A stretch of 64,000 nt of DNA from an uncultured Acidobacteriota bacterium. Lineage in GTDB: Bacteria > Acidobacteriota > Thermoanaerobaculia > Multivoradales > UBA5704. This document shows positions 14,277-26,298 of the stretch, piece by piece (positions within the stretch are counted from its first letter, which is position 1; every line of letters begins with the position of its first letter). The notes below the pieces were generated by a model. That model was not told the DNA's origin and searched no databases. It was given only the letters and a program-made list of their open reading frames with translations. The DNA lies in contig OY969474.1 in assembly GCA_963700145.1 (NCBI GenBank), positions 4,256,001 to 4,320,000 on the forward strand. Reading direction: 5' to 3'. The position numbers were made by a program, and so were the translations under genes.

Positions 14277-14764
14277 TCAAGCCTCTCCGGCTTCCTTTAA
14301 CGCCCAGTGGATTAGCTCCGGCGTGACGCGAATGTTCGTCTTTTGGAGGGCCTCCAGCACCGGTAGCACAGATCCAATGGCTCCTGCCCGTTTTGCTCGG
14401 ACGACGAAACCGACGGTTCCGGTGAAGTGCAGGCTCGAGAGTGCGGCGGTCCTACGGGCGAGGCGATCGTCGAGGAGGAGCAAGGTGTCCGGATGTGCAA
14501 GGCCGAATGCGAGCGCTTGGGCTTTTTCGCCCGGACCGAGATCCACCAGTGCGGGAAGCAGCGTTCGCTCAGGCGGCGACTCGACCTGGAGCCAAGGGTG
14601 CTGCCAAGATCGGGGACCTCGATCCCGAAGTGCGAGCCAGCGAGCTCTTCCGCTACAGCGGTGGGCACAACGATGCGGCCATAGAGCTGCCGCAGGAGAT
14701 CGGCGTTGGCCTATCTGGTGGAGGTAGTGGGGGAGGTGTTGCTGACCACGAGGCGGTCAGGCAT
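14277..14764 (-). CDS. DUF3368-family PIN-like toxin, frameshifted
   Basis: MPDRLVVSNTSP..., VPTAVAEEL, DLGPGEKAQALA, LLLDDRLARR, TGTVG. Confidence 0.8.
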
Positions 14765-15008
14765 TCAAGACGTCCTGCCGCAACTCCTCCTCGGTCAGTT
14801 GAAAGGGCGTGACGCCATGTCGCCCGAGAGCCATCAAGAAGGCCACCCGCGGAATGCCTGCGAGTTGGGCCGCTCGGCCCGAGGAAAGCCTGCCCAGCTC
14901 GAATAGCTTCACGGCGGTGAGGAGCCGCATTTCCTCACCAAAAGCCTCAGCGTCGGTCTTCAGACTGACGAGTGTCTCGTCAGGCACGTCGATGCGGACG
15001 GTGCTCAT
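14757..15008 (-). CDS. UPF0175-family antitoxin
   Basis: AVKLFELGRLSSGRAAQLAGIPRVAFL; overlaps the DUF3368 start. Confidence 0.88.
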   Translation of the reverse strand: MSTVRIDVPDETLVSLKTDAEAFGEEMRLLTAVKLFELGRLSSGRAAQLAGIPRVAFLMALGRHGVTPFQLTEEELRQDVLNA

Positions 15009-15078: not shown

Positions 15079-15429
15079 TTACTCCTTCTCGTCGATCGCG
15101 TTGGCGAGGTTCAGTTCGGCCATTGTTTGAGGCCGCGGCCGGGGCGGCTGGCGGTGTGGAGCGTGACGCCCCCAGGGCGCAGGTTGCGCAGGTAGGCGCG
15201 CAGCCCGCCTCGTCGGCGGGCCGGCGACGTACTCGACGAACGACGTGATCGAGTTGCGGCCCGGCAGCGCGTAGCGGCGCATGATCGCCGTCCCGCCGAA
15301 GGCCAGCCTCCAGCCGGGCATGTCGTGCAGCAGCTCCTGGATGCGCTCGGCCTTGAGCTGCTCCTTGATGGGGCCCGGCGCCGCCGCCGGCGCCGGGGTC
15401 CTTGCCACGATTGCGGTGGCTCGTTTCAT
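15079..15429 (-). CDS. pterin-4a-carbinolamine dehydratase-like small protein, indels in 3' half
   Basis: LKAERIQELLHDMPGWRL..GTAIMRRYALP...FVEYVA; GGAGG upstream. Confidence 0.55.
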   Translation of the reverse strand: MKRATAIVARTPAPAAAPGPIKEQLKAERIQELLHDMPGWRLAFGGTAIMRRYALPGRNSITSFVEYVAGPPTRRAARLPAQPAPWGRHAPHRQPPRPRPQTMAELNLANAIDEKE

Positions 15430-15535
15430 CGCGTCCTCCTTCCGTTGAGTCAAGCCTCCGCGGCTTGATCGCCGCGGCGGCAGCCAGTGGCTCGTAGAGC
15501 CATAGCTGTCGCCATGCCACCACTGACTTACGCGC

Positions 15536-15558
15536 AAAAGTCAATAGTCTTGACTTTT
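15536..15558. promoter_or_regulatory. inverted repeat made of two back-to-back TTGACT hexamers
   Basis: AAAAGTCAA-TAGTC-TTGACTTTT between divergent genes. Confidence 0.6.
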
Positions 15559-16974: not shown

Positions 16975-18375
16975 CTACGCCAGGCCCTCGGTACGCTCTT
17001 CGGAGCGCCCGAGACGCCGACGGTCCACTGAGCTAGCTCGCAGCTCGAGCACCTGCCCGGTCAGCATCAGGAGCCCGGCCCGGAAGCTCCCGGCCGGCAG
17101 CTCGCGCAGCACCTCGCGCCAGACCTCGGCGACGAGCTGGCGGTCGGTCCTGCCGGCCGCGGCCGCGTCGTACAGGCGGCGCAGCGCCGCGCGCACCCTG
17201 GAGGGCAACGCGCGGGCGCGCACCAGCGGCGCGAGCTTCGGCGCCATCCGCATCAGCTCACGCCGGCGGCCGCGCCAGATCCAGAGGCTTGCCAGGTGAA
17301 CCCCGGCGACCGCCGCCGCCTCGGGTGACCCCGCGCCGAGCGCCTCCGCGAACGCCGCGGTGAGCCGCCGGCTCGGCCTCCTCCGCCCGGCCGGCGAGCG
17401 CCGCCGCCTGCGCGCCGGTCACCCTGAGGACGGCGCGGAGCGCCAGGTGGTCAACGTGCGCCAGGGTCCGCCCGCTCCAGCACCGCCTCGGACTGCTCGG
17501 CGCGGTCGAAGCGGAGGAGGAGCTGCGCGAGGGCCGCCGGCCGCGTCGCCGCCGCCGGGTCGGCCACGCGGCTCGACGGCAAGAACGAGCGCGAGAAGAG
17601 CCCCACGGCGCGCTCCAAGTCCCCGAGGTCGGCGTAGAGCGTGCCCTGCTCTTCGAGCGCCAGGCTCTGTCGCCGCCTCGCCGCACTCCTCGAAGAGCGT
17701 CACCGCGCGCTGGTAGAGCGCCAGCGCTTCGGGCACGCGCTTCCCGGCGCGGCGGAAGCCGGCGAGCCGGCGCGCCAGGACCGCGGCCTCGAAGGAGTCC
17801 TGCTCTTCGAGGAGGTCCGAGGCGGTGCGGAAGGCGAGCTCCGCGCTTGACACCTCGCCGCGACGCTGGAGCGCCTGGCCCACGAGCGTGTAGCCGCTGC
17901 TCTGGAGGTCGCGCGCGGCGGCGCCCGGCGGCAACCGCTGGAGCAGGGTCAGCGCGAGCCGCGCCAACTCCTCGGCGGCGTCGGGCTGCGTCTCGGCGGC
18001 CTGACCGCCGCGCTCGAGGAGCGTCAGGACGACGGCGGCCGTGTGGAACCGCTCCTCGGTGCGGAGGGCGAGCGAGCGCTGCTCCCGCGGCAGCGCCAGG
18101 AGCTCGTCGACGAGCGGCCCGGCCGCCGCCCGCTCCGCCGCGATCGCCGCGGCCTGCGCCTCCCAGCGCCGGGCGAGCCGCGGCCAGACCCGGTCGAGCT
18201 CCGGCGCGCTGGCCGCCGGCGCCACGCCGGCCGCGGTCTGCGCGAGCTGCCCGGCGATCGGCCGCGCGAGCTTGCGGCAGCGCGGGCAGGCGAGGAGGTG
18301 CCCGAGGACGCCCGCCTGGCGCTCGGTCAGCGATGTCACGAACGGCAACAGCTCGCCCTCTCGGAAGTGCTCCAT
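16975..18375 (-). CDS. ZAS/zf-HC2-like finger + TPR protein, frameshifts in 3' half
   Basis: MEH...GHLLACPRC, then helical repeats (AEELARLAL, EALALYQRAVTLFEECGE); the 16975-17253 ORF looks like its C-terminus. Confidence 0.7.
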
Positions 18376-18655
18376 CGGCTCTCCTTCCCGCGTCGGTCCC
18401 GTTGCTGGTGGGGCGCTCTCTGCGCTCCAAAGAGTAACAACTATGGTGTACTGTGCCATAGTGTTGCCTACCAAAGCAAGAAGGTGTGAGTTGGTAGATA
18501 GGCATCTCGACGCCCACGGCCCAGGCAGTGCCTTGGGCGGCGGGGCGGCGCATCGAGTTACGCGGTCGGCACTAACCTCTTGGAAACAGGAGACATCCCG
18601 CGGGCGCCGCGGCCATCCCGGCCGCCCGGCGGTCCCGCCGGGAGAGGAGGTTGCG

Positions 18656-18896
18656 ATGTCGCGTCGAAAGATCGTGGTCAGCGTTGGGGTGCTGGCGGTG
18701 GCGACGTTTCTCGCCGTGTCGGGGCCTGCGCAGGCCCTCGGACCGCGGGCCGGCGGAAGGACGTCACCCGCCTGGTCCAGGGCTTGGCAGGCCGTCTCGA
18801 TGCTCTGGCAGGGGGCGCTCCAGCGCGTCGGGCTGGGGCCGGTAACCGCGCAAGGAGACGAAGGAGGTGGGGTGGACCCGTACCGGCAAGAACTAG
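18656..18896 (+). CDS. small secreted peptide precursor (~79 aa) ending GDEGGGVDP(x)G; one extra base before TAG 18894-18896
   Basis: SD GAGAGGAGG; signal peptide MSRRK-hydrophobic-AQA; Trp-rich spacer AWSRAWQAVSMLW. Confidence 0.7.
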
Positions 18897-18968
18897 CGTC
18901 ACCGAGCATCCGGCTCTGTGGCAGAATACGCGGCGCTAATCTGCTCAAAGCCGGAGACAAACTACCGC

Positions 18969-20414
18969 TTGCGCGAGCACCCGACGCCCCAAACCCTCGA
19001 CCGCTTCTTGCGCGGAGAGCTGCCGGCGACCGAGGGCGTCGGCGTGCTCCAGCACCTCGTCCGCGGCTGCCGCCCTTGCCTGGCGGCCGTCTCGCGGCAT
19101 CTCTATGGGACCGGGCAGCCGAAGGACCTCGACGGCGCCGGGCAGATCTACGACGCCGTTTTCGATCGCGCTTTCGGCATCGACGGCAAGGCCGCCAAAG
19201 ACCGCCGGAAAGAAGCACGCCTCGTCGAGGAGGCGTACACCGCGCTCGTGGCCGAGGGGCCTTCCGGGATCTTCCGTGCTTCCGTCCGCCGCTTCGACAG
19301 CCTGACGTTTTGTCGCGCTTTTCTGCGCCGGAGCTGGGAGCTGCGGCACGAAGACCCTGCCAAGATGCTGCACTTCGCGCGGCTCGCTGTCATGGCCTCA
19401 AGCTTCCTCAAGGTCGAGCGCCTCGGCAAGGCGAAGGTCGCCGACCTCCAGGCCCGCGCTCTCGCGGAGCAGGCGAACGCGCAGCGCATCAACGGCGATC
19501 TGGCGGGCGCGCAGAGGGCCATAGAGCAGGCTCTCGAGCTGCGGCGGGGTGGCACGCAGGATCCCTTCCTCGGAGCTCACCTGCTCACGATTCAGGCCAC
19601 GATCTTCGTCAGCAGGCGCCGCTTCCCGGAGGCGCTGGAGCTCCTGGAGGGAGTCGAGAGGACCTACGCTGCGTTCGGCAAACACCACGAGGCGGGCCAA
19701 GCCGCCGTTCAACGAGGTCTCTACACAGGTTACGGCGGCGATGCCGAGGAGGCGGTGCGCCTCCTGCGCCGCGGGCTAGGCCTCATCGACGAGACGGCGG
19801 ACCCCCAACTCGCATTGGTCGCAGTCCACAACATCGCGTGGTTCCTGATGGAGTCCGGCCGGCACACTGAATCTCGCATTCTGCTCTTCAGGAACAGAGC
19901 GCGCTACAACCAGCACGCCGACCGCATCATCCTCCTGAAGCGCACTTGGCTCGAGGGGCGTATCGCCGCTGGACTAGGGAACTTCGACCGTGCCGCTAAG
20001 CGCTTGGCCGAAGCGATGCAAGGCTTCGAAGAAGCCGAGCTCGGCTACCAGGCCGCCCTCGCCGCCCTCGACCTGGCCGCTGTCTGGCTTGAGCAAAACC
20101 ACTCGCCGATGGCCGCCACCCTCGTCGAGCAAGCCGCCGAGACCTTCACCGCGATCGGCGTCAACCGCGAAGCCATCGGCGCCCTCATCCTCCTCCAGAA
20201 AGCCTGCGAAAAAGGCCTAGCCACCGCCGCCTGGGTCCACCGCCTAACCACCCACCTCCGCCCCCTGGAGTACGATTCCTACGACCCGTTTCAATCAAGA
20301 GTAGGTACGGAGAGCCACCGAGCGAGGGCTCAATGCCCTAGCCCCTCGCCTGCTGACAAGTCAGCGTCAGTGCCCAAGGAGCCTGGCGAGTCGGCGACGC
20401 GGAGCCGGTGCTGA
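18969..20414 (+). CDS. ZAS/zf-HC2-like finger + TPR protein
   Basis: EHPTPQTLDRFLRGEL...QHLVRGCRPC; TPR-like helices (EALELLEGVERTY, AVHNIAWFL, WLEGRIAAGLG, ALAALDLAAVW). Confidence 0.8.
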   Translation: MREHPTPQTLDRFLRGELPATEGVGVLQHLVRGCRPCLAAVSRHLYGTGQPKDLDGAGQIYDAVFDRAFGIDGKAAKDRRKEARLVEEAYTALVAEGPSGIFRASVRRFDSLTFCRAFLRRSWELRHEDPAKMLHFARLAVMASSFLKVERLGKAKVADLQARALAEQANAQRINGDLAGAQRAIEQALELRRGGTQDPFLGAHLLTIQATIFVSRRRFPEALELLEGVERTYAAFGKHHEAGQAAVQRGLYTGYGGDAEEAVRLLRRGLGLIDETADPQLALVAVHNIAWFLMESGRHTESRILLFRNRARYNQHADRIILLKRTWLEGRIAAGLGNFDRAAKRLAEAMQGFEEAELGYQAALAALDLAAVWLEQNHSPMAATLVEQAAETFTAIGVNREAIGALILLQKACEKGLATAAWVHRLTTHLRPLEYDSYDPFQSRVGTESHRARAQCPSPSPADKSASVPKEPGESATRSRC

Positions 20415-20612
20415 GAACCGTTGCCGTTCGAGCGGCCTGGTGAAGTCCAGTGGCGCGGGAAGACCCCATAGGGCCGCCTGCTTGACCAAGGCACTTTTCT
20501 CAGCTACTGTAAAGTCCTCGACTGCGGCCTTTGACTGACACGCCCGGCGAGCGATATCTAGCTCGCGCGCACGCCACATTACTAGAGCAACAAACCCAGG
20601 ACACCAGCGCTC

Positions 20613-22720
20613 GTGGCGAACACAACTATAGTTTCTGAATACGATTGGGAGTACGACGTCTTCGTCAGCTATACAAGGTTCGACGAAACGCTGACCGGCC
20701 TCGTGCAACACATGACCGAGGCCTTGAGGACTCACTATAAAAGGCTAACCGGCCGCCCATTGCGAATATTCCAGGACACGGAGGCCTTACCCACCGCAGC
20801 GCTTTGGCAGGATCGGATCCTAAGCGCACTCCGCGGCAGCGCTACGTTACTGGCGATCTATACACCATCGTATTTTCAATCGGAATGGTGCGCCCGAGAA
20901 TGGGATTTCTTTCTGGCAATGGAACCAGAACGACGGCAGAAGTTCCACCTGGGCGACTTCGACTCATTAGTATTTCCTATCATAGCTGCAGAGGGCATCA
21001 CTTTTCCCGACGCCTCATCTATCCAGCATACCCGGCAGAGCGAGTTGCAAGCACGACAGGCTCTTCGCTTTGTCGACCTCGATCCTACTAGCTTATCCTA
21101 TGCAAAACATATCGCGACACTCGCCAGGCATCTCGCGCGAATCCTCGCGTTAGTGGCCCAAGTACCTATTTCTGATACCCCTGATGGCGGCTACAAGCCA
21201 CAACTAAACATTCCGCTAGTAACGACCTCCGGACGATCTGACGTTCATAGGCTAACAACCCTTCTAGCAGATGCCGAGTCAGCCATCATTATTGGCGTGA
21301 CAAACGACGAGCTTAGCGTCATTCTTGAACCCTCCCTAAAAGCCAAGCGCCTCAAAGCACGCGATGAAGGTGCCTTTTGGGATAGCTTGCGCATTGTCTT
21401 TCTCGCAGAGGACCTCCTCGCCTTTGTGGAGGATCACTTCACCACCGAAATCTCTAATCCGCGAGAGGCGCATCACCGCCGAGCGCGGCACGCCGGGCAG
21501 ATACAGCGACAGATCATGTCGCTCCTGATACGCCAGGGTGCACCTGGGCATTGGCGTCTCTACGCCTACCCGTACGCCCTTCCCTTCGCAGGCTACCTCT
21601 TTACGATGCCAGATGGCCGACGTATTGTTCAGCTAGAGATTGCCCGGGCCTCGCGAATGCCTGGCGACAATGTCTATATTCAGTTTGTCGATCGTGTGGA
21701 TACTCAGCTTGATGAGGCGTTTAGAGAAGTGGTGTCCTCAAGTCAGGAACAGCACGAGATTGTCCTCATTGGCACACCTGGCGTCGAGCCAGGCAGCTTC
21801 GCGTGTAGAGGTGCTCGTTTCCGTCGCAGCGTGCTTCTAGGAGGGCACAACACAGCCGACTTTCTGCCCTGCATCGTGGCCATCACCTGGCGAGCGTCGT
21901 TACGAGGTGTCGAACCGCTTCTTCAGCTGAACACCCCATCCAACTCTACGCGGGAAATGGGGAAGGCATCCCACGTAAGTGGCTATATCAACGAGCGGGA
22001 CTACTGGGCGGCCCTCCCGACCCAAGCCGACCGGTCCTCGGGTGAGGAGATGTGGCTCACACCTTCGGTCGCGGTCGCTGCATTGCACCGAGAGCTACAA
22101 AGCGACTTCGGCATCGAGGACAGCAGGGGTGCCGTGAATCTAGTTGCCACGGTGCCCTTCTACTACGCTGATAAGGAGAACCTTTTCTTTTTTGTTCTCG
22201 AGCGGGAAATACCAGCGGCGCATTTGTTTAGTGCTAACTCGCGGATGTTCGGTTGGTCTATTGATGAGTTACTCGCTGCTCGCTTTCGTCAAGTACTCCA
22301 AAATGCTATAGCTGCTTTACAGCACCCTCTCACTGCCCGCCAACGGGAGCGAGCCCTGAAGATGCTAACTCTTAATCTTCATGCGCACGGCCAACACGAC
22401 CTGGCTGATATGCTTCATCGACTAGGTGAGAGCCTCGGCAACGACCAAGCGGCGATACTGGCCTTGCACCACGCCGCCGCCAAATGACAGGTCTTCAAAT
22501 TCTCGACGGTGACGAGTTTGAGGTTAACGGTTTGGCGGGCCTGCAATACCGCATCTTTTTCTCACACCTACTTCCACTGTACGCAAAGCTCGGAGTCATT
22601 GGAGCCAGTGCTGAGCTGATGGCTCTAAACACTGATAAGCGGCGAATCCAAGCGGCTGAGTCACTAAGTGAGCTGTACGCTACGGAGGCATATATGCTAT
22701 CGTTACCAATCGAGGTGTAA
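20613..22720 (+). CDS. TIR-domain fusion protein (TIR - alpha/beta middle domain - degenerate Nudix-like C-terminus), frameshift near 22480
   Basis: YDVFVSYTR, IFQD, TPSYFQSEWCAREW (catalytic-type Glu); C-terminal SHVSGYINERD...AALHRELQSDFGI; ORF 22484-22720 is the likely tail. Confidence 0.8.
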
Positions 22721-22723
22721 GAA

Positions 22724-23386
22724 ATGAACGAGATCGGGGCTTTTTTCGACAGAGTCTACGCGAACACCGAACGATATTGGTGGCGCGTACCGCATGCGCA
22801 TTCGACTGTCCCTGAAGACCATGCCGACTCGCTCATCACACAGCAGGTCCTTCGCTTTGCGCGAATGCGAGGAAGTGGGAGAGCGCTCGACCTGGGAGCA
22901 GGTGAAGGGCACGACGCCGTCCGGCTTGCGCTGCTAGGATGGAAGGTCGAAGCAGTCGAGATGAGTCAAAGCGGGGCCAAGAAGACCCAACGTCTCGCAG
23001 AGAGCCTTGGCACAGAGGTCACTGTACACTGTGCTAATGCGGAAACTTTTGAGCCAACCGAAGCTTTTGATTTGATCGTATGTAACGGCCTCCTTCACTA
23101 TGTTACCGATAAGCGAAGGCTCTGCCAGCGCATGCAAGAGTGGACTGTTATAGGCGGACTTAACGCGATTGCGCTTTGGAGCGATTTCACGCCGGTTCCT
23201 GAGTGTCACCGTATCGTCCCAACTTTTCCGGATCGGGAGCGAGGAGAAGTTGTAGCCGCATACAGCCATTGGCAAATCGAGCTGCTATACCTTGAACGGA
23301 ACCGTGTTGACTTGGCACATGCTGATATGCCGAGTCACGTTCACAGCTACATCAAGTTAATCGCGGTAAGGCCGAGTGTCTGCTGA
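22724..23386 (+). CDS. class I SAM-dependent methyltransferase (TehB-like)
   Basis: ALDLGAGEGHDA, VEAVEMS, FDLIVCNGLLHY. Confidence 0.9.
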   Translation: MNEIGAFFDRVYANTERYWWRVPHAHSTVPEDHADSLITQQVLRFARMRGSGRALDLGAGEGHDAVRLALLGWKVEAVEMSQSGAKKTQRLAESLGTEVTVHCANAETFEPTEAFDLIVCNGLLHYVTDKRRLCQRMQEWTVIGGLNAIALWSDFTPVPECHRIVPTFPDRERGEVVAAYSHWQIELLYLERNRVDLAHADMPSHVHSYIKLIAVRPSVC

Positions 23387-23476
23387 GGACAAGCCGTGTT
23401 AGATTGGACCGGCAGGTTCGGGCCCTCGGCCCACGCCCGAGAATTTGGTTCTTAGGAAAGCGAGGAGTACCCAGCG

Positions 23477-23978
23477 ATGGCGACAACCTGGAGAGATGTA
23501 GTTGACGAGAACGATTTTGTTATCGGGCGTGCCCCGAAGGAACATTTCGACGGAGTGACGCTAATCTGCCGGGTCGCCTTCATTATGCTAGCGAACAGTA
23601 AGGGTGAGTTGCTGCTTCACCAACGCTCGTCCAACAAACGGTTCTATCCGTTGCACTGGTCAGGGACTGCTGGCAGGACACCTTCATAGCGGAGAGAGCT
23701 ATGAAGAGGCCGCGCATAGAGAACTTCGAGAGGAGCTTGGAGCCTTCGCCGACCTCGAATTCGTCGGCAAGTTCTACTCGCCCGAGGACCATGAGATGGT
23801 GGGAGTTTTCCTTGGACGCTACGATGGTGAACTGAGGGTCGAGCCTCACGAGGTGGTACAGGTTCGCTACTTCAGCCCAGAAACTCTAGAGCGTGAGCTG
23901 CCTACCATGTTAGTTACTAGCTTTCTGGAGCGCGCACTTCCGTTGATCCTACCTCGGCTGTCGCAACACGCCGAGTGA
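23477..23978 (+). CDS. Nudix hydrolase (IDI/YfcD-like), frameshift near 23675
   Basis: DVVDENDFVIG, LLLHQRSSNKRFYP, Nudix box GHLHSGESYEEAAHRELREELG. Confidence 0.88.
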
Positions 23979-24278
23979 AGCAGACGCTGTCTGGCGATGT
24001 CACGGCGTCTTCAGAGGGAATAGTCAAGAGACTAACACGATGGGACCTCAGTTCGCGTTGTGCCGAGCCTTCAGGGCCGGCAAAATTCGAAGCATGCTTC
24101 GCTGTCACGACGCCGATTTCAGTCAGCACTGCGGCTTCCTGCATGGCGCCTCGATCAGGCCTGCCATTGACTGGGATGCGCTTCCCAGGTAGATTCAGAC
24201 AAGGTCAGAAGATCGGGCATACGGAACACCTCGCCGCCTTTAGCGCAGAATGCACTCACCAGGGAAAGCGGGATACCA

Positions 24279-24789
24279 ATGATTGAGCGGACGCTTATTG
24301 TCATTAAACCCGATGGCTTGGCACGCGGACTCTCGATGGCAATCCTTGCGAGATTCGACATGGTGGGCCTGAAGCTAGAGGCTATCAAGATGATACGGCC
24401 GACTGCGGAGCAGGCAAAACATCACTATCTATATGAGGACATTGCTTCTCGCCATTCCGAAACCGTCTGGATACAACTTATAGAGTACCTTACCGAGGCG
24501 CCGGTGATTGTCGCTGTGTTCTCGGGTGTTTCTGCAATTGAAGTGGCCAGAAAGCTTGTCGGATCGACCGAACCGAGGAATTCACCTCCTGGAACAATTC
24601 GAGGCGATTACTGTCACCAATCCTATGCTGTTTGTGATCGGGCTGGCAAGGCTCGTCCGCAATCTTATACATGCCTCTGCCAACGCAACGGATGCAGAAC
24701 GGGAGATTGCTGTTTGGTTTGCACGAGATGAAATCTTCGCCTATCGAAGGGTTGACGATTTCGAACATTACCTCGGAACGGCAGAATGA
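24279..24789 (+). CDS. ndk: nucleoside diphosphate kinase, frameshift near 24655
   Basis: ERTLIVIKPDG, PGTIRGDY, RNLIHAS (catalytic His), AEREIAVWF. Confidence 0.9.
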
Positions 24790-24793
24790 CATA

Positions 24794-25438
24794 GTGGGCG
24801 ACTTTCTTTCAGAGATTCTTCGCCTCTCCGAGACCCCAACGTGTCGGCTGTCGGTGGAAGCTGCACTAAAGAAACTCGGCGTCCTCAATCCAGATGAGCA
24901 GTTGATATTTCATCGAGACTTGGCTGCTTGGCATCGGAGCGGTGCTGAGACCTACAGCTGCTCCGCCGAGCTGACCATTGCCGGCGCGAGCGGAGCGACG
25001 CTATGCCGCACCCTCATATGTAAGGCTGTCTTCACTTTCGGTCCATTGTCCGATCAGAGCCTTTCGAGATGGTTAGAGCGGTACGCCCTTTTGGCCGAAA
25101 ATGGAGTGCAGGTACCTCATGTATATTTTGCCGATCGCGGGGTAATTGTTCAAGACTATATAGAGCACTCTCTTCCTGACTTTCTAGCAGGCTGCTCGGC
25201 GGAGACTGCGGTCGCGGTCGCAACACAGATCCATCGGCTCGCACAAGTTCTCGACAAGCTCGGGTTCCTACCCGTCATGTTCATTCCCGACTTGCGTATC
25301 GCCTCCGACAGTACATGCTTCGTTGTGGATGTCGGCGAGGATCTTGGCCCTCCCGGCCGTGCACCGAAGGGTGCGCGGAATTCCACACGTCAAGCTGAAG
25401 AATTTTTCGCCAAGCTCGGTGGAGCCACTGCTTGGTAA
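24794..25438 (+). CDS. kinase-like fold protein with degenerate catalytic loop
   Basis: LICKA, GVQVPHVY, GVIVQDYIE, FVVDVGED; no canonical HxD. Confidence 0.5.
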   Translation: MGDFLSEILRLSETPTCRLSVEAALKKLGVLNPDEQLIFHRDLAAWHRSGAETYSCSAELTIAGASGATLCRTLICKAVFTFGPLSDQSLSRWLERYALLAENGVQVPHVYFADRGVIVQDYIEHSLPDFLAGCSAETAVAVATQIHRLAQVLDKLGFLPVMFIPDLRIASDSTCFVVDVGEDLGPPGRAPKGARNSTRQAEEFFAKLGGATAW

Positions 25439-25863
25439 GCGCATGGCAGGCCGGCCTAGCTCCTGAAAAGACCTAGCGCTGCGAAAAAGGCAGCCAGAGT
25501 GCCCATTAATGGATCAAGACCAAAGAATTTCGGAGTGTCCACTTGCCGCCGACTTGTCTCGTAGAGCTAGGCGGGGTTAGCTAGTCCTAAGCGCTACCGA
25601 GCCAACTCGACAGATCAGGTGCTCGGCCTTCGCAGCATCACAGCCCTAGGACGAGGTTCGGCATGATCGATGAGAAACTGCACTAACCGTTCGTCGATCG
25701 GGCGTGAACTATCATGGCGAAAGACGGGTCGTACCCACGGAAAACGCGCAAAGGTGCGCGAATAGGCCATAGATCTCATGCTGGCCGTCAAGGATCGGCT
25801 GTCGGCACATGTTCGGAAGAAGTTGAGCAGACGGTGCGCGCCGGTGATCGGCGCAAGGCGGTC

Positions 25864-26298
25864 TCAGCGCCGCCGCGACTTGACCGGCTCTGACGGGGCG
25901 CTGCGGGTGGGGGCTTGGTGGGCTAGAAGGTCCCGGATCTCGCCGAGGAATCGCTGCAGCTCCTGCGACATCGCGGCTGGCCCCTCCGGCGGCAGGGCGT
26001 GGGCCTTCGGGTTGAAGACCTGGAGCTTGCGGCCGGTTGGGCTCGGGGCGGCGGACTCCGGGGGGTAGGCGAGGTTGAAGAACTCGGCGGGGCGCAGCTC
26101 GACGGCTTGCAGGATCTCGAGGACGCGCCGCAGCTTGAGCTCGAAGGAGCCGGAGAGGAGCCGCCAGATGTAGCCGGGGCTCTGGCCGATGCGGCGCTCG
26201 ATCTCGGCGGTCGGGACCTCCGACATCTTGATGACCGCCTTGAGCAGCTCGGAGAGGCGAGCGATCTCGGCGGAATGGTCGTCGGGCTTGGCGGGCAC
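25864..26298 (-). CDS. Xre-like HTH transcriptional regulator
   Basis: AEIERRIGQSPGYIWRLLSGSFELKLRRVLEILQAVELRPAEFF. Confidence 0.8.
   Translation of the reverse strand: MPAKPDDHSAEIARLSELLKAVIKMSEVPTAEIERRIGQSPGYIWRLLSGSFELKLRRVLEILQAVELRPAEFFNLAYPPESAAPSPTGRKLQVFNPKAHALPPEGPAAMSQELQRFLGEIRDLLAHQAPTRSAPSEPVKSRRR

Follow-up and report, generated by a model that had tools for sequence, protein, structure and literature searches.

The stretch of DNA considered here (the window) comprises 64,000 nucleotides of the genome of an uncultured member of the Acidobacteriota (contig OY969474.1, positions 4,256,001 to 4,320,000), a genome assembled as a single contig of 5.46 Mb with a GC content of 71.5%. 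Comparative analysis indicated that a short gene starting at position 18656 of the window, which codes for a small putative propeptide, and the larger gene that follows it, which codes for a protein (ZnF-TPR1) with an N-terminal His/Cys zinc finger (ZnF) and a superhelix of tetratricopeptide repeats (TPR), constitute one copy of a conserved cassette family of the class Thermoanaerobaculia. On balance it is considered probable that the two products form a peptide-ligand and receptor pair resembling the RRNPP systems, which would act via an anti-sigma domain. Computation shows linkage of the two genes, a pattern in the motif, the TPR fold and anti-sigma likeness of the receptor, and a predicted interface between the two products. 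The relevant features of the window are as follows.

18656 to 18896, + strand: propeptide gene, from ATG 18656 to TAG 18894-18896, the TAG being reached only with one C of 18883/18884 removed.
18656 to 18736, + strand: predicted Sec-type signal peptide, recognised by inspection (MSRRK, a hydrophobic core, and AQA at residues 25-27).
18767 to 18829, + strand: putative Trp-rich amphipathic helix of the pro-region, located from family alignments (family consensus approximately RAWxWLxxLW).
18854 to 18887, + strand: C-terminal unit GDEGGGVDPY(G), the window version of G-x-x-[IVLM]-D-P-x-G, broken by the extra C at 18883/18884.
18969 to 20414, + strand: ZnF-TPR1, 481 residues from TTG 18969, with H4, H29, C34 and C37 followed by a TPR superhelix from about residue 111 to 435.
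17044 to 18375, - strand: ZnF-TPR2, a second protein of related type with the motif HxxxCxxC (HLLACPRC), divergent from the propeptide gene.

The initial annotation of this locus had described a small open reading frame (ORF) with a Sec signal ending in AQA, a Trp-rich spacer and an acidic Gly-rich motif, and each of these was confirmed directly in the sequence: GGAGAGGAGG lies 5' of ATG 18656, and the Trp-rich segment AWSRAWQAVSMLWQ stands in the small protein after AQA and before GDEGGGVDPY. Codon-position GC gave a weak to moderate coding signal for the propeptide frame (18650-18800). An intact paralogue located elsewhere in the same genome (G000:336552-336779) ends ...GIDPYG*, and its structural model (mean predicted local distance difference test score, pLDDT, 65.8) placed one helix over the signal peptide and a second over the Trp-rich region, with coil over the last nine residues. 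The plan shared by the propeptides consists of a signal peptide with an AxA-like site, the RAWxWLxxLW helix, a variable linker and the C-terminal unit; both an N-terminal hydrophobic peak and the AxA-like site were present in 30/30 aligned propeptides. Neither Pfam nor NCBIfam returned a family above threshold for the five own-genome propeptide paralogues scanned, the frameshifted product of the window gave no Pfam match, and the ESM Atlas returned solely unnamed Acidobacteriota clusters at values (0.80-0.85) under the level that counts as evidence.

Linkage of the two genes was assessed both within the genome of origin and among its relatives. In the former, a propeptide gene was located upstream and on the same strand for 12 of the 14 full-length ZnF-TPR1 paralogues; among these 12 are the window copy despite its frameshift, one variant reading IDGNG, and two cassettes with a sigma factor gene of the extracytoplasmic function (ECF) type in between. 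For the relatives, 60 upstream regions of 900 nt each were drawn from the best 150 of 952 ZnF-TPR matches by rank and completeness of the N-terminus, the selection being made before their upstream DNA was viewed. With automatic criteria that called for a signal-peptide-like start plus the motif on the same strand, a qualifying ORF ending 22-198 nt before the TPR gene was recorded in 53 of the 60, and no opposite-strand ORF in these regions satisfied the propeptide criteria; the seven misses included one with a variant unit (GSDPNG) and one with an ORF 671 nt distant. Searches conducted with the small protein by tblastn gave matches directly 5' of ZnF-TPR matches in many relatives. A six-frame scan of the whole genome for [IVLM]DPxG yielded just 21 matches with a stop no more than six residues away, and a motif ORF no more than 250 nt upstream for 9/14 TPR paralogues. 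It was apparent from these counts that the motif is both conserved and linked to zinc-finger/TPR genes, as had been proposed.

The family so defined is a large one. A profile constructed from 30 propeptides and run against 1.84 billion proteins matched 3228 cluster representatives at E <= 1e-3, of which 349 had E <= 1e-10; the best 150 matches were nearly all full-length (about 83-130 residues). The corresponding ZnF-TPR profile (E <= 1e-30) detected members in 11 of 301 sampled Acidobacteriota genomes, all of them in the class Thermoanaerobaculia, to which the genome of the window also belongs by the source names of its homologues, and 15 of 24 genomes of the same family each contained at least 36-39 ZnF-TPR matches.

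Alignment of the precursors resolved the C-terminal motif into a unit, G-x-x-[IVLM]-D-P-[NDWYF]-G, before which W-E-x-[EQ] is common and after which a stop codon often comes at once; in its form of about nine residues ([DE]-x-G-x-x-[IV]-D-P-[ND]-G) it frequently occupies the extreme C-terminus, and the precursor ends exactly at the last G of the unit in 19/58 cases. Each propeptide carries from one to three units, two or three being present in 17 of 58 precursors. The x-x pair was identical in 13/21 pairs of copies within a precursor, as against 45/1653 pairs between precursors, while the four residues preceding the unit were 26% identical within precursors and 12% between them; from these counts it follows that the x-x pair is kept inside a cassette and differs across cassettes. 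In some variants the unit is flanked by Cys residues (CIDPNGxC).

The AlphaFold2 model of ZnF-TPR1 (pLDDT 84.6) revealed a TPR superhelix of eight repeats spanning residues 111-435. In Foldseek it was matched best by the peptide-binding TPRs of LGN/Pins (E about 1e-6) and, at E about 1e-4, by Rap, NprR and MalT domain III. The TPR_12 score of 25.4 bits is below the Pfam cut-off of 30.1 bits; the fold is still clearly TPR by both model and Foldseek. No membrane-like segment was detected in 25 of 27 members of the ZnF-TPR family, and ZnF-TPR1 is predicted to be cytoplasmic.

Residues H4, H29, C34 and C37, which form the pattern H-x24-H-x4-C-x2-C, are invariant or nearly so in the family alignment, and a profile of the N-terminal 60 residues matched the anti-sigma factors DdvA (E = 6.2e-5), ChrR (0.05) and 3hug_B (0.18), the last of which we take to be RslA. 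Pfam detected no helix-turn-helix (HTH) family in ZnF-TPR1, the N-terminus of which corresponds to a His/Cys zinc finger of apparent anti-sigma type; an Xre or AraC HTH in place of the zinc finger was encountered only in distant TPR homologues. Genes coding for ECF sigma factors were located beside 3 of the 14 own-genome cassettes, two between the propeptide and TPR genes and one divergent from the propeptide gene. The former two are tandem cassettes with the order propeptide-ECF sigma-ZnF-TPR (G000:795418-799984, locus L028), in which the sigma stop overlaps the TPR start; the divergent sigma gene of the third cassette belongs to the same clade as these two, and the fourth gene of the clade is an orphan (G000:4071146-4071646). 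The proposal that output proceeds through the zinc-finger domain could accordingly be sharpened, on the basis of the profile likeness and of these neighbouring sigma genes, to one of putative anti-sigma type.

The complex between propeptide and receptor was predicted with the intact own-genome paralogue pair, deploying the full ZnF-TPR protein, residues 29-75 of the small protein and one alignment per chain. The resultant complex score was 0.63 (three runs: 0.67, 0.63 and 0.60), whereas the best of three controls scored 0.00; in the calibration of the tool, 58 of 80 solved complexes and 2 of 110 mismatched pairs attained the mark, figures that are only rough with user-supplied alignments such as those used here. 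Partner pLDDT was 44-46 over the runs, and contact agreement between runs was at least 37%. The confident interface consisted of exactly peptide residues 67-75 (QGIGIDPYG), laid along the TPR groove and contacted at positions that recur every 37-40 residues. Of the groove contacts, N171 (24), R174 (27), H288 (23), N289 (24), K/R325 (25) and W328 (25) are conserved in the bracketed numbers of the 27 aligned sequences, while contacts 292, 322 and 332 belong to the most variable positions. The prediction thus supports binding of the C-terminal unit in the TPR groove, and peptide-TPR binding, as first suggested for this locus, stands as a predicted interaction.

By way of mechanism, we infer export, cleavage, re-import and a direction of response as follows. 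The product of the first gene would be an exported propeptide that is cut to release DPNG units, and the released peptides would accumulate and then re-enter the cell, possibly by way of the products of three Opp/Dpp-type binding-protein genes (SBP_bac_5) that are present in the genome. One of these (G000:1860979-1862022) lies about 3 kb from a ZnF-TPR paralogue (1856742-1858283), maybe by coincidence. Once inside, the peptide would occupy the TPR groove, in which conserved residues would hold the I-D-P-N-G part and variable residues would read the x-x pair, so providing a separate channel for each cassette; binding would then alter the hold of the anti-sigma domain on an ECF sigma factor, and thereby change transcription.

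A number of points weigh against this ligand-receptor scheme. One is of topology, since the ligand is predicted to be exported and a cytoplasmic location is predicted for the receptor. The cassettes showed no linked gene for an importer, exporter or protease, the host is presumably diderm, and we know of no outer-membrane route. The conservation of the I-D-P-N-G core across paralogues means that it carries limited specificity information, and a grouping of the groove contacts did not reveal greater variability in those to the x-x pair than in those to I-D-P (1.48 versus 1.70 bits). The complex score is a measure of model confidence, obtained from user-supplied alignments with a partner pLDDT below 50, and TPR-peptide complexes are frequent among solved structures. 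As to the anti-sigma assignment, Pfam zf-HC2 matched 8 of 13 members, all with E >= 0.035 and so below cut-off, the spacing H-x4-C-x2-C of ZnF-TPR1 is one residue longer than the H-x3-C-x2-C of zinc-binding anti-sigma (ZAS) factors, and 11 of the 14 own-genome cassettes, that of the window included, have no adjacent sigma gene. Furthermore, the window copy is itself broken, and activity at this locus can therefore not be inferred. Of the original suggestion of an analogue of the RRNPP systems in a diderm host, the gene linkage and the predicted groove binding were upheld, whereas its association with a nearby Xre regulator proved weak and the window copy proved to be damaged. Loss of the motif or of its linkage to TPR genes, a lack of predicted binding, and the lack of a stop near 18896 had been named beforehand as results that would tell against the idea; as run, the corresponding analyses returned none of them.

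The best of the alternative explanations, itself considered unlikely, is that the relationship is solely that of a regulator and its target: the ZnF-TPR protein would, with an ECF sigma factor, control its neighbour, the small protein would be an exported effector of a membrane-active, antimicrobial, adhesive or metal-binding kind, and the two products would never touch. Gene adjacency by itself fits a regulator located beside its target, a Trp-rich amphipathic helix is typical of peptides active at membrane interfaces, the Cys-flanked variants are as found in disulfide-stabilised secreted peptides, and the prediction of different compartments for the two products also speaks for it. Set against this are the complex prediction, which places the conserved C-terminal unit, at the score given above, in a conserved groove, and the fact that the contacting groove residues are among the most conserved of the family. 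Repeated units that retain the same x-x pair between diverged flanks resemble released ligands rather than one folded effector, and the pairing recorded in relatives is tighter than the usual linkage of regulator and target.

Binding before export would remove the topology problem. The TPR domain would hold the C-terminus of the precursor in the cytoplasm, and export would free or load the anti-sigma domain, in the manner of FlgM or of a chaperone-type TPR, with re-import unneeded. The same predicted interface fits this arrangement, as does the position of the propeptide gene as the first in an apparent peptide-sigma-TPR operon in two own-genome cassettes. A general export sensor would nevertheless be hard to reconcile with the presence in one genome of dozens of parallel cassettes, every one having a separate x-x pair, multiple copies of the unit per precursor suggest released peptides, and no linked secretion apparatus was seen, from all of which this explanation is judged distinctly improbable.

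The small proteins might also be precursors of ribosomally synthesised and post-translationally modified peptides (RiPPs), or proteins on which a sorting system acts, with the DPNG unit as the site of modification or cleavage. The repeated core-like units and the Cys-flanked variants would accord with such a role, and Asp-Pro and Asn-Gly are chemically labile bonds. It is rendered very improbable by the outcome of a scan of 40 neighbouring proteins, which disclosed no recurrent gene for a modifying enzyme, protease or transporter, by the NCBIfam and Pfam scans of the five own-genome propeptides, which gave no match above threshold, and by the Sec signal peptides, which are unusual in RiPP precursors.

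It might be argued, from the abundance of long spurious ORFs in the window, the lack of an in-frame stop until 19870 and the only moderate codon-position signal, that the small ORF arose by chance in GC-rich DNA and that its motif is an artefact. This view is scarcely credible and is already contradicted by the linkage in relatives and the family profile: the amino acid pattern is kept at dozens of loci with diverged DNA, the profile matches 3228 clusters, the homologues have proper stops after the motif, and the same criteria gave zero opposite-strand ORFs.

As regards the window cassette itself, the propeptide frame as assembled remains open until 19870, being out of register with the TAG at 18894-18896, just as the initial annotation had suspected. 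Comparison with the intact paralogue disclosed one extra C in the window (TAC-C-GGC-AAG-AAC-TAG), without which the product ends VDPYGKN*. Contigs of relatives that are about 89-93% identical to the window have one base fewer at 18883, so that the gene ends ...DPYGKN* and the anticipated stop at TAG 18894-18896 is restored; two such contigs came from sequencing run X1 and one from run X2, in two studies, and represent relatives, not the window strain. The extra C at 18883/18884 may be either a mutation or an error of assembly, as no sequencing run found by the search contains the window strain (best word share 0.07; no RNA run listed).

The start of ZnF-TPR1 is probably TTG 18969, because alignments of homologues begin at about residue 18 of the reading from GTG 18918, and a stop codon interrupts the corresponding upstream region of relative G004. 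Its sequence matches that of a 98% identical relative to about residue 431 and then diverges, and pLDDT was below 50 for residues 437-481. The aberrant stretch is as follows.

20262 to 20414, + strand: 3' tail of ZnF-TPR1, which departs both from the 98% identical relative and from the family C-terminal consensus LRRxExDPxARF.

On this comparison, the 3' end of ZnF-TPR1 is replaced in the window. An island of low GC content (20300-25800; 0.52-0.57, as against at least 0.70 in the flanks) begins inside this 3' end and has the appearance of an inserted defence-type island. It contains a gene for a 624-residue TIR-domain protein (20613-22487; Pfam TIR_2, E = 2.4e-10, with a weak PADLOC match to ThsB) and a methyltransferase-like gene (22724-23386; mad2-like according to PADLOC).

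For ZnF-TPR2, alignment with an intact paralogue that is 90% identical at the DNA level located indels at about 17370 (+1), 17455 (+1), 17541 (-3) and 17670 (-2). As these are not of the homopolymer type typical of sequencing error, it is more likely that ZnF-TPR2 is a pseudogene in the window; in addition to the own-genome paralogue, intact orthologues were found in relatives G004 (95% identity) and G001 (71%). The description of the propeptide gene as flanked on both sides by related HxxxCxxC/TPR proteins held in part: ZnF-TPR2 has the motif HxxxCxxC, whereas ZnF-TPR1 has H-x4-C-x2-C, and the mutual likeness is only distant (27% identity over 200 residues, E = 4e-6). No PADLOC model matched ZnF-TPR1 or ZnF-TPR2. 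The window cassette, with its frameshifted propeptide gene, its likely ZnF-TPR2 pseudogene and the replaced 3' end of ZnF-TPR1, is a decaying copy, and matters chiefly as a pointer to the family.

Conserved elements were also recognised in the non-coding DNA of the cassette.

18917 to 18949, + strand: block TGTGGCAGAATACGC-N-GCTAATCTGCT between the propeptide gene and ZnF-TPR1, conserved in 5/5 aligned orthologous loci.
18594 to 18645, + strand: GC-rich leader element (CCCGCGGGCGCC..GGCCAT..) 5' of the propeptide ribosome-binding site, seen in most of 61 leaders.
18455 to 18487, no strand assigned: block in the intergenic region between the divergent genes, bearing the inverted repeat TTGCC-N6/7-GGCAA, from an alignment of five orthologous loci.

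The first of these may be an extended -10 promoter (TGnCAGAAT) for ZnF-TPR1, and similar xAGAAT boxes were found in other own-genome cassettes; a scan for consensus sigma-70 promoters and terminators found nothing at 18250-19050. The block at 18455-18487 is a candidate operator. In the relatives (loci L038-L097), the leader element, CCCGCGGGCGCC..GGCCATGG.., is found 35-80 nt 5' of the majority of propeptide genes and often has a GCAACG-N4-7-CGTTGC inverted repeat before it. RNAalifold conducted on 40 leaders gave a weak result (-3.67 kcal/mol; covariation term -0.2), the element being conserved in sequence rather than covarying, and Rfam gave no credible match within 18200-19100, where the single hit was a CRISPR repeat model (E = 0.37). 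A genome scan with a position-weight matrix returned strong hits solely at the window cassette, which was the best, and at its paralogue; the leaders of both were in the training set of the matrix, and the element was thus rejected as the mark of a wider own-genome regulon. Two further candidates were rejected, namely the reading of GGCAC...TTGG, 5' of the propeptide gene, as a sigma-54 element, which on visual inspection has the wrong spacing and lacks the -12 GC, and an upstream ORF starting from the conserved GCCATGG, the frame of which relative to the main ATG varies between loci.

Several types of gene recur near the cassettes, including those for Xre-type HTH proteins (about 145 residues), DCoH-like proteins (DCoH being pterin-4a-carbinolamine dehydratase), a second HxxxCxxC protein (260-274 residues) and unnamed proteins of 128-141 residues. 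Such neighbours were recorded at loci L027, L031, L032, L033, L034 and L036, and in the window at 15079-15537 and 25864-26298, a distribution that suggests a larger repeated gene neighbourhood around the cassettes. Xre-type genes thus recur at other cassettes and none adjoins that of the window, so that the proposed link to a nearby Xre regulator is weak. The window also codes for an 83-residue UPF0175 protein (14757-15008, - strand; Pfam E = 7e-26), from a family whose members often carry an antitoxin-like annotation. Elsewhere in the genome, an AAA_14/DUF4143 ATPase gene (G000:338674-339978; locus L027:7674-8978, - strand) adjoins the intact paralogous cassette, its product matching the PADLOC candidate defence family PDC-S01 (E = 2.6e-76). 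A phage-type integrase and a Mutator-family transposase adjoin one further cassette (G000:2749900-2753300, locus L030), which hints that some cassettes lie in mobile regions.

Taken in its widest form, the ligand-receptor reading would define a new class of peptide cell-cell signalling in diderms, with one to three DPNG nonapeptides per Sec-exported precursor, anti-sigma/TPR receptors that gate ECF sigma factors, dozens of orthogonal channels per related genome, and thousands of variants in metagenomes; this wider claim is advanced tentatively. Peptide signalling via cytoplasmic TPR receptors is regarded as a Firmicutes trait, and the Acidobacteriota are an abundant, poorly cultured soil phylum. 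If correct, the proposal would bring secreted peptide ligands together with ECF sigma/anti-sigma switches, both of them major designs in signalling, would give thousands of so far unnamed small proteins (the 3228 clusters) and a large TPR family a function, and would supply short, genetically encoded pairs of ligand and receptor that are directly testable with synthetic peptides.

A full-text literature search retrieved no description of the propeptide/ZnF-TPR system or of a comparable Acidobacteriota system, and as far as searched the family is undescribed; the "DPNG motif" of the literature is that of GH32 fructosidases, and is irrelevant to the propeptide unit.

Among known systems, the RRNPP group (Rap-Phr, NprR-NprX, PlcR-PapR, Rgg-SHP, AimR-AimP) is similar in that the gene for an exported propeptide adjoins that for a cytoplasmic receptor with a TPR superhelix, a short C-terminal active peptide occupies the TPR groove (as predicted here), many paralogous cassettes are present per genome, and some precursors contain tandem copies of the peptide, for which a precedent is given in the part of PMC11343458 consulted. 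Structures of Rap and NprR were among the Foldseek matches (E about 1e-4), a likeness at the level of the fold with 10-12% identity. The differences are equally clear: an anti-sigma-like, putatively zinc-binding domain takes the place of the HTH or Rap-type N-terminal domain, no relationship was found at the sequence level, Pfam and NCBIfam giving generic TPR matches and a weak match to the AfsR TPR region only, the propeptide gene is here upstream of the receptor gene, the Trp-rich pro-region and the IDPNG core are conserved, and the host belongs to an Acidobacteriota class and not to the Firmicutes. In the portions available, the surveys PMC10075063 and PMC9765709 mention no such systems outside Firmicutes, and the former describes peptide signals as typical of that phylum.

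The ZAS factors (ChrR, DdvA, RslA, RsrA) resemble the ZnF-TPR proteins in the N-terminal pattern H-x24-H-x(3-4)-C-x2-C and through the profile matches, and the overlap of an ECF sigma gene with the TPR gene start in two own-genome cassettes is a further likeness. They differ in that the protein is here predicted to be soluble, with the TPR superhelix as presumed sensor instead of a membrane span, cupin or redox switch, in the one extra residue before the first Cys of ZnF-TPR1, and in the lack of an adjacent sigma gene in most cassettes. No description of a paired secreted peptide for ZAS factors was found in the full-text search, and the ECF reclassification PMC7826278 does not, in the portion available, mention such a peptide/ZnF-TPR pair.

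The closest solved folds are those of LGN/Pins (E about 1e-6; target-normalised TM-score about 0.65-0.71), which are eukaryotic cell-polarity proteins with about 15% identity and thus alike at the fold level only; in these, as in the complex predicted here, an extended peptide runs along the inner groove and makes contacts with conserved Asn and Arg residues.

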